Positions 1,512-8,500 of a stretch of 64,000 nt of DNA are shown in pieces (within the stretch, counting starts at the first letter, position 1; each line of letters starts with the position of its first letter). The position numbers were made by a program, and so were the translations under genes. Under the pieces are notes generated by a model. The model had not been told where the DNA came from, did not search any database, and saw nothing but the letters and a program-made list of their open reading frames with translations. The stretch is from the NCBI RefSeq assembly GCF_058153355.1, contig NZ_CM177019.1. One strand, 5' to 3'.

Positions 1512-1629
1512 CGGTCTCTCTCACTGGATGTTAAAGAACGGGAAAACGGCGCAGAGTATAGCAGCGAGATCGGCATCTGTCTTCGTTTTATGATAAGATG
1601 CGTGAATAATCTTTAGATGAAGAAAGACA

Positions 1630-2370
1630 ATGCTGCAAAATATTCGAATTGTGCTGGTGGAGACGTCACACACCGGTAATATGGGTTCTGTTGCCCGTGC
1701 CATGAAAACAATGGGCTTAACCAATCTGTGGCTGGTTAATCCACTAGTGAAACCTGACTCCCAGGCGATTGCTCTGGCAGCAGGGGCCAGCGATGTGATT
1801 GGTAATGCTCACATTGTCGATACACTCGACGAAGCGTTAGCCGGTTGTAGCCTGGTGGTTGGCACCAGTGCACGCTCGCGCACGCTGCCGTGGCCGATGC
1901 TCGACCCGCGCGAATGCGGTTTGAAAAGCGTCGCTGAAGCGGCAAATACGCCGGTGGCACTGGTTTTTGGTCGTGAGCGTGTCGGCTTGACCAATGAAGA
2001 GTTGCAAAAGTGCCATTATCATGTCGCCATTGCCGCTAACCCGGAATACAGTTCGCTTAACCTGGCGATGGCTGTTCAGGTTATTGCCTATGAAGTGCGC
2101 ATGGCCTGGCTGGCGACTCAGGAGAACAGCGAGCAGGTTGAACATGACGAGACGCCGTATCCGCTGGTCGATGATCTGGAACGTTTTTACGGTCATCTTG
2201 AACAAACGCTGCTGGCAACCGGCTTTATCCGTGAAAACCATCCGGGGCAGGTGATGAATAAGCTGCGTCGTCTGTTTACCCGTGCGCGCCCGGAAAGCCA
2301 GGAGTTGAATATCCTGCGCGGGATTCTGGCTTCTATTGAGCAGCAGAATAAAGGTAACAAGGCCGAATAA
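1630..2370 (+). CDS. trmJ: tRNA (cytidine/uridine-2'-O)-methyltransferase TrmJ (SpoU family)
   Basis: 246-aa ORF, SpoU/TrmH-like sequence; divergent from suhB as in K-12. Confidence 0.9.
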
Positions 2371-2377
2371 CCGAGGT

Positions 2378-2450
2378 TGCCTGATACGGCGCTTAACGCG
2401 TCTTGTCAGGCCTACATTGTACTGAACCCCTGGTCGGATAAAGTGTTTAC
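2378..2450. repeat. REP / BIME-like palindromic units
   Basis: gcctgatacggcgcttaacgcgtcttgtcaggcctac followed by a degenerate second unit (cggataaagtgtttacgccgcacccgaca); typical enterobacterial REP shape, located 3' of trmJ. Confidence 0.5.
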
Positions 2451-2524
2451 GCCGCACCCGACAACAGGTACAAACGCCACGATAAAAAAATGGCACTGAA
2501 GGTTAAATACCCGACTAAATCAGT

Positions 2525-2610
2525 CAAGTAAATAGTTGACCAATTTACTCGGGAATGTCAGACTTGACCCTGCTATGCAATACCCCCACTTTTACAATAA
2601 AAAACCCCGG
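2525..2610 (+). promoter_or_regulatory. iscR promoter / IscR autoregulatory operator region
   Basis: Sequence immediately upstream of iscR with TTGACC-type -35 candidates and AT-rich tract (aaatagttgaccaatttactcgggaatgtcagacttgaccc). IscR autorepression of isc is established knowledge; exact site boundaries not verified. Confidence 0.4.
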
Positions 2611-2639
2611 GCAGGGGCGAGTTTGAGGTGAAGTAAGAC

Positions 2640-3128
2640 ATGAGACTGACATCTAAAGGGCGCTATGCCGTGACCGCAATGCTTGACGTTGCGCTCAACT
2701 CTGAAGCGGGCCCGGTACCGTTGGCTGATATTTCCGAACGTCAGGGAATTTCCCTTTCTTATCTGGAACAACTGTTTTCCCGTCTGCGTAAAAATGGTCT
2801 GGTTTCCAGCGTACGCGGACCAGGCGGTGGTTATCTGTTAGGCAAAGATGCCAGCAGCATCGCCGTTGGCGAAGTGATTAGCGCCGTTGATGAATCTGTA
2901 GATGCCACCCGTTGTCAGGGTAAAGGCGGCTGCCAGGGGGGCGATAAATGCCTGACCCACGCGCTTTGGCGTGATTTGAGCGACCGTCTCACCGGTTTTC
3001 TCAACAACATTACTTTAGGCGAACTGGTTAATAACCAGGAAGTGCTGGATGTATCTGGTCGTCAGCATACTCACGACGCGCCACGCACCCGCACACAAGA
3101 CGCGATCGACGTTAAGTTACGCGCTTAA
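2640..3128 (+). CDS. iscR: Fe-S cluster regulator IscR (Rrf2 family)
   Basis: 162-aa [22 protein letters not shown]... with helix-turn-helix N-terminus and Cys cluster ([13 protein letters not shown]). Confidence 0.95.
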
Positions 3129-3149
3129 TTTAACCGTCCTGTTTCGTGT

Positions 3150-3225
3150 TGCATCTGCGTTGACTGCACATACTCACTCCGGTCACTTACTTATGTAAGC
3201 TCCCGGAGATTCGTAAGTTTGTCAA
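3150..3225. repeat. ERIC/IRU-like element fragment in the iscR–iscS spacer
   Basis: gtcacttacttatgtaagctcccggagattc resembles the ERIC core (GTCACTTACTTATGTAAGCTCCTGGGGATTCAC as recalled); the spacer is 240 nt. Confidence 0.4.
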
Positions 3226-3368
3226 CTTGCTGAAACCCGAAACAGTTAGGTTAAAGATAACAAGATATTAGAATCAGGCCGGGGCGTCTCGCGCTCCGTA
3301 AACACGGTCGTACATCCAGCCGGTAGCCTGGTTCCTTGCATTGAGTGATGTACGGAGTTTATAGAGCA

Positions 3369-4583
3369 ATGAAATTACCGATTTATCTCGACTACTCCGC
3401 AACCACGCCGGTGGACCCGCGTGTTGCCGAGAAAATGATGCAGTTTATGACGATGGATGGAACTTTTGGTAACCCGGCCTCCCGTTCTCACCGTTTCGGC
3501 TGGCAGGCTGAAGAAGCGGTAGATATCGCTCGTAATCAGATTGCCGATCTGGTTGGCGCTGATCCGCGAGAAATCGTCTTTACCTCTGGTGCTACCGAAT
3601 CTGACAACCTGGCGATCAAAGGTGCTGCTAACTTTTATCAGAAAAAAGGCAAGCACATCATCACCAGCAAAACCGAACACAAAGCGGTACTGGATACCTG
3701 CCGTCAGCTGGAGCGCGAAGGTTTTGAAGTCACTTACCTGGCACCGCAGCGTAACGGTATTATCGACCTGAAAGAACTCGAAGCAGCGATGCGTGATGAC
3801 ACCATCCTTGTTTCCATCATGCACGTAAATAACGAAATCGGCGTGGTGCAGGATATCGCGGCTATCGGTGAAATGTGCCGTGCTCGTGGCATTATCTATC
3901 ACGTTGATGCAACCCAGAGCGTGGGCAAACTGCCTATCGACCTGAGCCAGTTGAAAGTTGACCTGATGTCTTTCTCCGGTCACAAAATCTACGGCCCGAA
4001 AGGTATCGGTGCGCTGTATGTGCGTCGTAAACCGCGCGTACGTATCGAAGCACAAATGCACGGCGGCGGTCACGAGCGCGGTATGCGTTCCGGTACTCTG
4101 CCTGTTCACCAGATCGTCGGGATGGGCGAAGCCTATCGCATCGCAAAAGAAGAGATGGCGACCGAGATGGAACGCCTGCGCGGCCTGCGTAACCGTCTGT
4201 GGAACGGCATCAAAGATATCGAAGAAGTTTACCTGAACGGTGACCTGGAACACGGTGCGCCGAACATTCTCAACGTCAGCTTTAACTACGTTGAAGGTGA
4301 GTCGCTGATTATGGCGCTGAAAGACCTTGCGGTTTCTTCCGGTTCTGCCTGTACGTCAGCAAGCCTCGAACCGTCCTACGTGCTGCGCGCGCTGGGGCTG
4401 AACGACGAGCTGGCACATAGCTCTATCCGTTTCTCTTTAGGTCGTTTTACTACTGAAGAAGAGATCGACTACACCATCGAGTTAGTTCGTAAATCCATCG
4501 GTCGTCTGCGTGACCTTTCTCCGCTGTGGGAAATGTACAAGCAGGGCGTGGATCTGAACAGCATCGAATGGGCACATCATTAA
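3369..4583 (+). CDS. iscS: cysteine desulfurase IscS
   Basis: ORF track 3345..4583; conserved start [16 protein letters not shown] at 3369 (404 aa); PLP-dependent class V aminotransferase motifs ([12 protein letters not shown]). Confidence 0.95.
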
Positions 4584-4610
4584 TCGGTATCGGAATCAGG
4601 AGAATTTATA

Positions 4611-4997
4611 ATGGCTTACAGCGAAAAAGTTATCGATCATTACGAGAATCCGCGTAACGTGGGTTCCTTCGACAACAACGACGAGAACGTGGGCAGCGGC
4701 ATGGTGGGTGCACCGGCCTGTGGCGACGTGATGAAGTTGCAGATTAAAGTCAACGATGAAGGTATCATTGAAGACGCGCGTTTTAAAACTTACGGCTGCG
4801 GTTCCGCTATCGCTTCCAGCTCCCTGGTCACCGAATGGGTGAAAGGGAAGTCTCTCGACGAAGCACAGGCGATCAAAAACACCGATATTGCTGAAGAACT
4901 TGAACTGCCGCCGGTGAAAATTCACTGTTCTATTCTGGCAGAAGACGCGATCAAAGCCGCCATTGCGGACTATAAAAGCAAACGTGAAGCAAAATAA
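4611..4997 (+). CDS. iscU: Fe-S cluster scaffold IscU
   Basis: 128-aa ORF with the three conserved Cys (GAPACGDV, GCGSAIASS, HCSILAEDA). Confidence 0.95.
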   Translation: MAYSEKVIDHYENPRNVGSFDNNDENVGSGMVGAPACGDVMKLQIKVNDEGIIEDARFKTYGCGSAIASSSLVTEWVKGKSLDEAQAIKNTDIAEELELPPVKIHCSILAEDAIKAAIADYKSKREAK

Positions 4998-5013
4998 GAG
5001 TTGAGGTTTGGTT

Positions 5014-5337
5014 ATGTCGATTACACTGAGCGACAGTGCAGCAGCGCGAGTAAATACCTTTCTGGCTAACCGCGGCAAAGGGTTTGGCCTGCGTCTGGGT
5101 GTGAGAACCTCCGGATGTTCAGGTATGGCTTATGTACTGGAATTTGTTGACGAACCGACGCCGGAAGACATCGTGTTTGAAGACAAAGGCGTGAAAGTCG
5201 TGGTCGATGGCAAAAGCCTGCAATTTCTGGACGGTACGCAACTGGATTTCGTAAAAGAAGGCCTGAACGAAGGGTTTAAATTTACCAACCCGAACGTCAA
5301 AGATGAGTGTGGTTGCGGCGAAAGCTTCCACGTTTGA
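5014..5337 (+). CDS. iscA: Fe-S cluster A-type carrier IscA
   Basis: ATG at 5014 (track ORF begins at TTG 5008); 107 aa ending ...CGCGESFHV with the conserved Cys triad. Confidence 0.95.
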
Positions 5338-5432
5338 TGCGCATACCGATAACCCCACCGTGGTCAGCTGCGCGTGGGGTTTGTTTTACCTGATTCGTCG
5401 TTATTGCGGCGGATCGCAGCCCTGAGAATGTT

Positions 5433-8364: not shown

Positions 8365-8369
8365 TTTCC

Positions 8370-8500
8370 GCGTCATGCTTCACGCCGCAGATGCGTTGGC
8401 TGCGCTCGTTCACCCCAGTCACATAGTTATCTATGCTCCTGGGGCTTCACTCACTTGCCGCCTTCCTGCAACGCGAATCATTTAGCGGAAAAATCCTGGG
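8370..8500. repeat. ERIC/IRU element (enterobacterial repetitive intergenic consensus)
   Basis: cgttcaccccagtcacatagttatctatgctcctggggcttcac plus flanking cacgccgcagatgcgttggctgcgctc match the ERIC imperfect palindrome as recalled; lies in the iscX–pepB spacer. Confidence 0.55.

Follow-up and report, generated by a model that had tools for sequence, protein, structure and literature searches.

The spacer between iscR and iscS was examined in a 64,000-nt stretch of DNA (contig NZ_CM177019.1 of RefSeq assembly GCF_058153355.1), referred to here as the window, which carries the genes suhB, trmJ, iscR, iscS, iscU, iscA, hscB, hscA, fdx, and iscX. By its sequence, the first part of this spacer is a full-length ERIC element that is absent from the same place in Escherichia coli K-12. 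The start of iscS was set at the ATG at 3369, in agreement with the K-12 annotation of a 404-aa protein, and the GTG at 3345 is only the mechanical start of the open reading frame (ORF). Counted from the iscR stop codon to this ATG, the spacer (3129–3368) is 240 nt long, compared to 111 nt in K-12 MG1655, and the extra DNA amounts to 129 nt (3129–3257). An earlier reading of the letters by a model (the original prediction) had proposed both a long, 240-nt spacer and an insertion relative to K-12, and had named an identical K-12 spacer as the outcome that would overturn it; alignment showed that the K-12 spacer differs, and both proposals were upheld. The same prediction placed the spacer in the segment of the iscRSUA mRNA that undergoes RyhB-dependent differential decay, which was borne out as well. 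PMC12533949 describes iscRSUA as co-transcribed in K-12, and, according to that paper and PMC7038943, a structured element at the end of the iscR cistron, the iscRS element, protects an iscR fragment there while RyhB blocks iscS translation and iscSUA is degraded.

The identification of 3129–3255 as an ERIC (also IRU or RU-1), a miniature inverted-repeat element, was supported by several comparisons. All 127 positions aligned without a gap, in the plus orientation, to the 127-nt E. coli consensus published in PMC2759123, and 92 of the 127 were identical. A hidden Markov model (HMM) built solely from three other E. coli copies (cusC–cusF, aceF–lpdA, and the copy 3' of ybiT) matched the element over HMM positions 3–125 with an nhmmer score of 85.8 bits and an E value of 1.5e-26 in the spacer set and 9.4e-26 in the whole window, and the element also aligned end to end with each of these three copies. 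A 40-nt ERIC core query, which was confirmed against the published consensus, matched the minus strand at 36 of 40 positions. The assignment far exceeds what is expected by chance. The string that the original prediction had quoted as resembling the ERIC core, gtcacttacttatgtaagctcccggagattc, was located at 3182–3212, where it overlaps the central palindrome (3177–3208), and the ERIC-like palindrome it described is a genuine ERIC. The first base of the element is the base immediately after the iscR TAA. A blastn search with the element hit a median of 7 places in each E. coli genome, at 60–80% identity, which identifies it as a member of a dispersed family.

Other identities were considered for the insert. 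It is not a REP or BIME unit, since it has 127 nt and an ERIC profile and is not a 35- to 40-nt GC-rich palindromic unit. Two Rfam families gave matches over the ERIC that were discarded as evidence for having scores far under gathering: CssrA, at 21.8 bits, and V_AS5 (Vibrio antisense RNA AS5), which matched 3133–3255 on the minus strand over its whole 129-position model with 20.7 bits against a gathering score of 96. An ERIC-like repeat may underlie the V_AS5 family. The idea that the ERIC carries a promoter or a terminator was also rejected: the scan of 3129–3368 returned no promoter-like or terminator-like site, and no GC-rich hairpin followed by a T run, as expected of an intrinsic terminator, lies within these positions. 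Searches of the literature on ERIC or REP sequences in connection with iscR or iscS turned up no description of an ERIC in the iscR–iscS spacer, with the Wilson and Sharp 2006 survey falling outside what was covered. What is new is a polymorphic ERIC copy at the isc regulatory site, the ERIC family itself being already known.

The RNA of the element was predicted to form one long hairpin with a free energy of −45.8 kcal/mol (z −5.2), and none of 200 shuffled sequences was as stable. The relationship of this hairpin to its surroundings was assessed by partition function with a 360-nt construct consisting of 60 nt of iscR, the spacer, and 60 nt of iscS, in which 42.6 pairs were expected within the ERIC and 0.9 between the ERIC and the outside. 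The mean probabilities of being unpaired for the iscS Shine-Dalgarno sequence, the AUG, and the RyhB site were 0.01, 0.20, and 0.30, respectively, compared to 0.01, 0.20, and 0.26 in K-12. The ERIC is thus predicted to be structurally insulated from the iscRS element and to leave the RyhB module alone. The ERIC does not form part of the protective 3' structure; it lies upstream of the iscRS element and is predicted to fold apart from it.

The remainder of the spacer contains the iscRS "iscR stability element" (RF01517), which was detected between iscR and iscS with a score of 117.8 bits (gathering score, 40; E value, 2.1e-31). Within 3294–3457, the only difference from K-12 is at 3331. Two of the five pairs of the outer closing stem are non-canonical in the cmscan alignment, a departure from the consensus: the 5' strand of this stem (3265–3269) reads AUAUU here and AAUUC in K-12, and the linker holds 2 extra nt (GA) relative to K-12. 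The outer stem is formed in the minimum-free-energy (MFE) structure of K-12 and absent from that of the window, and the inner stems are intact in the latter. Membership in RF01517 stands because of the score and the intact inner stems. Local remodeling is found only in this outer stem; the predicted accessibility of the Shine-Dalgarno sequence, the AUG, and the RyhB site is as in K-12. RNAduplex predicted pairing of the RyhB core at 3327–3355 (−20.8 kcal/mol), 3337–3361 (−19.1 kcal/mol), and 3353–3372 (−17.0 kcal/mol), and a scan of the ERIC with the same core found no comparable site (best, −12.7 kcal/mol). The query was the core of K-12 ryhB, which replaced the full-length RyhB after the latter gave an unrealistic end-to-end duplex. 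The RyhB pairing site at the iscS initiation region is predicted to be kept, and on these models essentially no change is brought by the ERIC to the iscRS element, to the ribosome-binding site of iscS, or to the site at which RyhB pairs.

A second inverted repeat had also been proposed in the spacer. It is present, its arms CGUACAUC (3309–3316) and GAUGUACG (3347–3354) being complementary at 8 of 8 positions, but it is not new, since both arms lie in the iscRS element and occur in K-12 as well. An 8-nt inverted repeat is by itself statistically unremarkable, and the two arms are not paired with each other in the Rfam iscRS consensus. The 3' arm shares positions with both the predicted RyhB site and the Shine-Dalgarno sequence of iscS, and it was invariant in 58 of 58 sequences; the invariance of the 5' arm is given by construction, as it was part of the search pattern. 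Judged from their complementarity, the arms could form a pseudoknot, or the 5' arm could act as an internal competitor of RyhB for the same target. The features of the locus are collected in Table 1.

Table 1. Positions of the features in and around the iscR–iscS spacer, in window coordinates
Feature	Position	Strand	Basis and remarks
iscR coding sequence (162 aa), stop codon TAA at 3126–3128	2640..3128	+	ORF list; alignment to K-12 iscR b2531
Full-length ERIC/IRU (RU-1), 127 nt, orientation of the published consensus	3129..3255	+	Consensus alignment, nhmmer, alignments to ERIC copies, absence from K-12
ERIC 5' terminal inverted repeat	3129..3153	+	25 nt, 80% complementary to 3231–3255; helices 1–2 of the predicted fold
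ERIC central palindrome, the core targeted by ERIC-PCR primers	3177..3208	+	Inverted repeat; apical helices of the predicted fold
ERIC 3' terminal inverted repeat	3231..3255	+	Complement of 3129–3153; counterpart in Yersinia holds a proposed RNase E site (PMC10969869 and PMC2229807)
AU-rich linker from the ERIC hairpin to the iscRS core, predicted single stranded	3256..3272	+	Comparison with empty alleles; unpaired in the MFE structure
iscRS "iscR stability element" (RF01517), structured 3' end of the iscR cistron	3258..3367	+	cmscan, model positions 1–110 of 110
5' arm CGTACATC of the second inverted repeat	3309..3316	+	Hairpin loop of iscRS; mean P(unpaired) of 0.90
Predicted RyhB pairing region	3337..3372	+	RNAduplex; overlaps GATGTACG (3347–3354), Shine-Dalgarno GGAG (3354–3357), and AUG (3369–3371)
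iscS coding sequence (404 aa)	3369..4583	+	ORF list; K-12 annotation b2530; tblastn in 57 species

The distribution of the insert within E. coli was determined by megablast with the junction region. The long form of the spacer was present in 490 of 5,424 complete genomes (~9%), and the spacers of the remainder were 111 nt or, rarely, 115 nt. The ERIC alone was found at ≥99% identity in 489 genomes, in a single copy in each and never annotated. Carriers include HS (NC_009800), ATCC 8739, and strains of serotypes O26:H11, O111:H8/H11, O103, and O158:H23, and the insert is missing from K-12, BL21, and a derivative of O157:H7 86-24. The insert is a presence/absence polymorphism that is absent from approximately 91% of complete E. 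coli genomes. In 5,426 E. coli genomes, no other ERIC was more than 80% identical to the isc copy, the best other copy having 60–80% identity. The insert was found on at least two flanking haplotypes: other carriers were approximately 97.4% identical in the flanks yet 100% identical in the ERIC.

Several variants of the neighborhood were noted in the same genomes. The trmJ–iscA haplotype of the window (3.8 kb, 1600–5400) was matched at ≥99% in only 15 of 5,426 complete E. coli genomes, nearly all of the others being ~97.4% identical to it, which suggests, from sequence comparison, a divergent or recombinant segment around isc in the lineage of the window; the density of single-nucleotide polymorphisms between the window and another ERIC-bearing strain, a local comparison only, spoke decisively neither for nor against a recombination tract. 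In E. coli strain 33E (NZ_CM147847.1), the spacer measures 115 nt (TAA|AAGATAAAAAGTATTCAG), and the final ~40 nt of iscR diverge strongly. Its spacer has the length of the E. albertii spacer and a nearly identical start. This allele was probably imported, and of those compared it comes nearest to a clean empty site. An exact empty-site counterpart was not found among the alleles compared, the closest being this 115-nt, E. albertii-type allele. Further structural variants of the isc neighborhood are E. coli GZ2408C (NZ_CM172481.1), in which an IS621 (IS110-like) transposase is annotated within the trmJ–iscA region, and strain N96, whose trmJ–iscA match is split into two pieces with ~90 extra bases.

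The same site was compared across the Enterobacteriaceae. Species-representative genomes were scanned for an exact 19-mer from the iscRS element, which gave at least 78 loci, and 57 of the 78 were Enterobacteriaceae loci with complete iscR and iscS ends; the E. coli and Salmonella enterica subsp. enterica representatives were not among them. A palindromic insert was present at the same site in 40 of these 57 species, and 17 had none. The 3' module of the spacer was constant in length (92–103 nt), and the 5' module, immediately after the iscR stop codon, fell into three classes: 13–21 nt with no insert (17 species, E. albertii included), 57–85 nt with a single stable hairpin of −18 to −33 kcal/mol (28 species), and 126–144 nt with a full-length or near-full-length ERIC (12 species). 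In ten species, a full ERIC occupied this site and was oriented like that of the window. They comprised Citrobacter amalonaticus (86% identical), C. youngae, C. werkmanii, Citrobacter On2M, Enterobacter asburiae, two other Enterobacter, RIT691, and two Phytobacter (67–75%). The orthologous C. amalonaticus copy, at 86%, was the closest relative of the isc ERIC among the matches listed. An ERIC in the opposite orientation occupied the same site in the Citrobacter metagenome-assembled genome HRGM_0066 and in C. amalonaticus ku-bf3 (minus-strand nhmmer matches with E values of 1e-17 and 5e-15).

The inserts of 57–85 nt were resolved by multiple alignment and eight representative pairwise alignments to full-length neighbors, on which the deleted-ERIC class rests, into 13 forward and 8 reverse ERICs from which the center had been deleted and in which the terminal arms were kept. 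Matches of nhmmer to these inserts were weak (E values from 4.5e-4 to >1), and the retained arms were 81–94% identical to those of the neighbors: 93% for Leclercia versus Enterobacter asburiae, 94% for C. braakii versus the reversed Citrobacter copy, 86% for Phytobacter massiliensis versus P. diazotrophicus, and 81% for Citrobacter NCU1 versus the window. Deleted reverse ERICs were seen in Salmonella enterica arizonae and diarizonae, C. braakii, Pluralibacter gergoviae, Lelliottia, Huaxiibacter, and Kosakonia S29. The seven Kluyvera inserts were palindromic and were left unclassified.

Among the ten orthologous forward copies, the hairpin was well preserved, with 97.2% of cells paired. Changes on both sides of a pair were found at 10 of 39 pairs, compared to 4.0±1.2 in column shuffles (none of 500 reached 10) and 0–2 in slid controls. 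The non-Watson-Crick cells were G·U in 15 cases (nine of them in one column pair) versus A·C in 2, an excess that gives a weak hint that the RNA of the sense strand is what is maintained.

Taken together, these comparisons indicate that the isc ERIC is one of an old group of ERICs that fill the same site in several genera. It is not a recent jump from a resident copy, because no other ERIC in these genomes exceeds 80% identity to it, and the presence of both orientations at the site points to at least two independent insertion events. The E. coli copy appears as a mosaic in which the ERIC body is closest to that of C. amalonaticus and the iscRS module is E. coli/E. albertii-like, and its altered right flank, GATATTAG, is common to C. 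freundii-complex alleles. The site may have been filled once, long ago, with many later losses and internal deletions; it may be a hot spot for repeated insertion; or an allele may have been transferred between genera. The best overall explanation, to which we assign a probability of roughly 60%, is that the ERIC is an old insert in the isc unit, shared at this site across genera, that forms a self-contained hairpin and leaves the RyhB module intact.

If this explanation is correct, the ERIC would be transcribed within iscRSUA, and the decay of iscSUA triggered by RyhB, along with the survival of the iscR fragment, would persist, as RyhB control should do because the RyhB module is intact. The surviving iscR fragment would then carry the ERIC hairpin in its 3' untranslated region. 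Because the ERIC abuts the stop codon, a ribosome terminating there might hold the 5' arm of the hairpin open; the AU-rich 3' arm and the linker (~3240–3272) might thereby be exposed to RNase E, and cleavage within ~3240–3272 would detach iscR from the protective iscRS structure. The level of iscR mRNA would fall relative to that of iscSUA, a new route for lowering IscR mRNA. Approximately the first 12 nt of the ERIC 5' arm would be covered by the mRNA channel when a ribosome terminates at the iscR TAA. The model for this sequence of events comes from Yersinia, in which translating ribosomes are described as keeping the ERIC hairpin open and unmasking an RNase E site in the 3' terminal inverted repeat and stop-adjacent ERICs as lowering the level of the upstream transcript in an orientation-dependent manner (PMC2229807, PMC3184786, and PMC10969869). 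As the most likely added effect, although less likely than not when taken alone, we tentatively put forward a translation-coupled RNase E effect that lowers iscR mRNA, drawn by analogy with that system. The idea in the original prediction that an insert here could alter how isc mRNA is processed is a reasonable hypothesis.

A number of points weigh against the explanation given above and the functional steps attached to it. Compensatory changes can arise by quasi-palindrome (template-switch) mutation without selection, and internal deletions that spare the outer arms are what a hairpin decaying by mutation would be expected to show. The weakening of the iscRS outer stem, with two of its five pairs broken, could push the outcome in either direction. 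TA dinucleotides lie near both ends of the ERIC (3131–3132 and 3252–3253), but no TA target duplication could be made out, as the right-hand 18 nt differ between the filled allele (TAA|TAAAAAG…) and the empty allele (…AAAGA|TAACAAG…). Thermodynamic insulation is equally compatible with a neutral passenger, and each functional step is an inference.

The ERIC may instead be a neutral passenger that is co-transcribed with no measurable effect on iscR or iscSUA expression and that persists because it folds on itself and disturbs nothing. The predicted insulation and the unchanged accessibility of the Shine-Dalgarno sequence, the AUG, and the RyhB site are what this alternative would lead one to expect, as is the decay of the palindrome by central deletions that spare the arms; both alleles coexist in healthy, successful E. 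coli lineages, and 17 of the 57 species, along with K-12, manage without the insert. It is harder to reconcile with a hairpin that is 97% paired and has double changes at 10 of 39 pairs among copies in different genera, or with the presence of some hairpin right after the stop codon in 40 of 57 species, and stop-adjacent ERICs in the same orientation in Yersinia are described as altering upstream mRNA levels (PMC2229807 and PMC10969869). We consider this alternative approximately as plausible as the RNase E effect and, taken singly, rather unlikely; an added barrier to exonucleases is less plausible than either.

A stronger functional claim can be made from the retention of a hairpin in 40 of 57 species, its compensatory changes, and its survival even after deletion of the core: the site after the iscR stop codon would be a long-lived, repeatedly filled docking site for ERICs throughout the Enterobacteriaceae, at which a selected, translation-sensitive hairpin sets the iscR:iscSUA ratio. 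We regard this as unlikely. Less probable still is that the ERIC serves as an extra stabilizer, a second barrier to 3'→5' exonucleases that, in the manner of REP stabilizers, makes the iscR fragment more stable or more abundant when iron is limiting than it is in K-12. A hairpin as stable as this one (−45.8 kcal/mol) directly 3' of the iscR coding sequence could have this effect, the K-12 iscR fragment is described as being guarded by a REP-like 3' structure (PMC7038943 and PMC12533949), and the ERIC stem could compensate for the weakened outer stem of iscRS. However, the downstream iscRS element is already a barrier, to which an upstream hairpin adds nothing unless cleavage occurs between them, and the in vivo results published for stop-adjacent ERICs point to destabilization (PMC2229807).

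It is very improbable that a resident E. coli ERIC jumped recently into the isc operon in this lineage. ERICs are MITEs (transposable elements of the miniature inverted-repeat type) that are polymorphic in presence and absence among E. coli strains, strain-specific sites being known and 14 extra E. coli sites having been reported outside K-12 (PMC10969869), and the carrier copies are ≥99% identical to one another. Against this, none of the other ERICs in the 5,426 genomes surpasses 80% identity; the same site is filled, in the same orientation, in Citrobacter, Enterobacter, and Phytobacter, with the C. amalonaticus copy at 86%; the right flank GATATTAG is shared with Citrobacter freundii-complex alleles; and the insert is carried on at least two flanking haplotypes in E. 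coli. The lack of a near-identical resident copy and the cross-genus occupancy largely refute it. That the spacer is merely the known structured spacer of K-12, whose element does make up the 3' 110 nt, is refuted by the K-12 length of 111 nt, in which 3129–3257 is missing.

The RyhB–iscRSUA system, as established in K-12, is a textbook case of differential decay driven by a small RNA within an operon. In approximately 9% of complete E. coli genomes, a 127-nt hairpin is predicted to stand between iscR and its protective structure; among the carriers are HS, a commensal reference strain, ATCC 8739, a test strain, and the major non-O157 serogroups of enterohemorrhagic E. coli, and an insert is found at the site in most of the sampled genera of Enterobacteriaceae as well. 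If the hairpin alters the survival of iscR mRNA, the regulation exerted by IscR on isc, suf, and virulence/adhesion genes would differ among lineages in a way that is invisible to comparisons of gene content. The two alleles provide natural, isogenic-like pairs in which the one functional model so far published for ERICs, an RNase E site unmasked in step with translation, could be tested in a well-characterized mRNA. Should the hairpin prove to be without effect, it would be a clear case of a MITE tolerated through structural insulation. If the site does prove to be a docking site of the kind described above, the hairpin would be a second module of the iscR 3' processing signal, the K-12 model, which does not have this module, would represent the minority architecture, and HS, ATCC 8739, O26, O111, and O103 strains would differ heritably from K-12 and O157:H7 in Fe–S homeostasis.

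The element can be compared with four known systems, the first of which is the set of ERICs that reside in K-12 (cusC–cusF, iscX–pepB, ybiT, and aceF–lpdA). These share with it the 127-nt length, the core, the long imperfect palindrome, and an intergenic position within operons. Those of iscX, ybiT, and cusC are oriented like the isc copy and either abut a stop codon or lie close to one, the junctions, which are nearly alike, being TAA|TTTAACCG for iscR, TGA|TTTCCGCG for iscX, and TAA|TTTCCCGC for ybiT, with the cusC copy beginning 6 nt past the stop. The aceF–lpdA copy, which is ~180 nt away from the stop codon of aceF, runs the other way with respect to transcription. This orientation pattern fits the rule published for stop-adjacent ERICs and the accompanying RNase E model (PMC2229807, PMC3184786, and PMC10969869). 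The isc copy differs from the K-12 copies in that it is only ~66–73% identical to them, its site is empty in K-12, and it adjoins a characterized regulatory RNA instead of an anonymous spacer.

The iscX copy is also present in the window as a second full-length ERIC (8365–8491, plus strand; 94.1 bits; E value, 2.6e-28; 105 of 127 positions identical to the consensus). It starts at the first base past the iscX stop codon (TGA|TTTCCGCG), is oriented as the iscR copy, and is followed, ahead of pepB, by a terminator-like GC hairpin and T run. An identical copy exists in K-12, and the element was covered in only 3,289 of 5,425 E. coli genomes; judged from this coverage, the iscX-adjacent ERIC is likewise polymorphic. 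Two genes of the isc operon of the window, iscR and the last one, iscX, are each followed by an ERIC that abuts the stop codon.

The second system is RF01517 as it occurs in K-12. The element is complete in both cases, and the RyhB site and the iscS ribosome-binding site are as in K-12; the iscRS element starts a few bases past the iscR stop in K-12 and 129 nt further downstream here, with the ERIC lying outside RF01517. The third comprises the REP/BIME stabilizers, such as that of malE–malF, which are likewise intercistronic palindromes within operons and could halt decay in the 3'→5' direction and bring about differential expression of cistrons. REPs are GC-rich units of ~35 nt, whereas the isc element has 127 nt and an ERIC profile. 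Elsewhere in the window, the trmJ–iscR intergenic region gave a sub-threshold match to the REP-derived family naRNA4 (2432–2495, plus strand; 30.1 bits versus a gathering score of 59.5), and these positions are probably a REP/BIME unit upstream of the iscR promoter.

The fourth system consists of the stop-adjacent (putatively "B-oriented") ERICs of Yersinia enterocolitica, which, as described in the papers cited above, are co-transcribed, abut the upstream stop codon, and have hairpin-forming terminal inverted repeats, the 3' one AU rich; the isc copy shares these features, its co-transcription being presumed. By this analogy, the mechanism proposed for Yersinia, in which the hairpin is opened by the ribosome and cut by RNase E, would be geometrically possible at the isc ERIC. 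The isc element differs from the Yersinia elements in belonging to another genus and another ERIC subfamily, and in being followed by a second, dedicated stabilizing structure.

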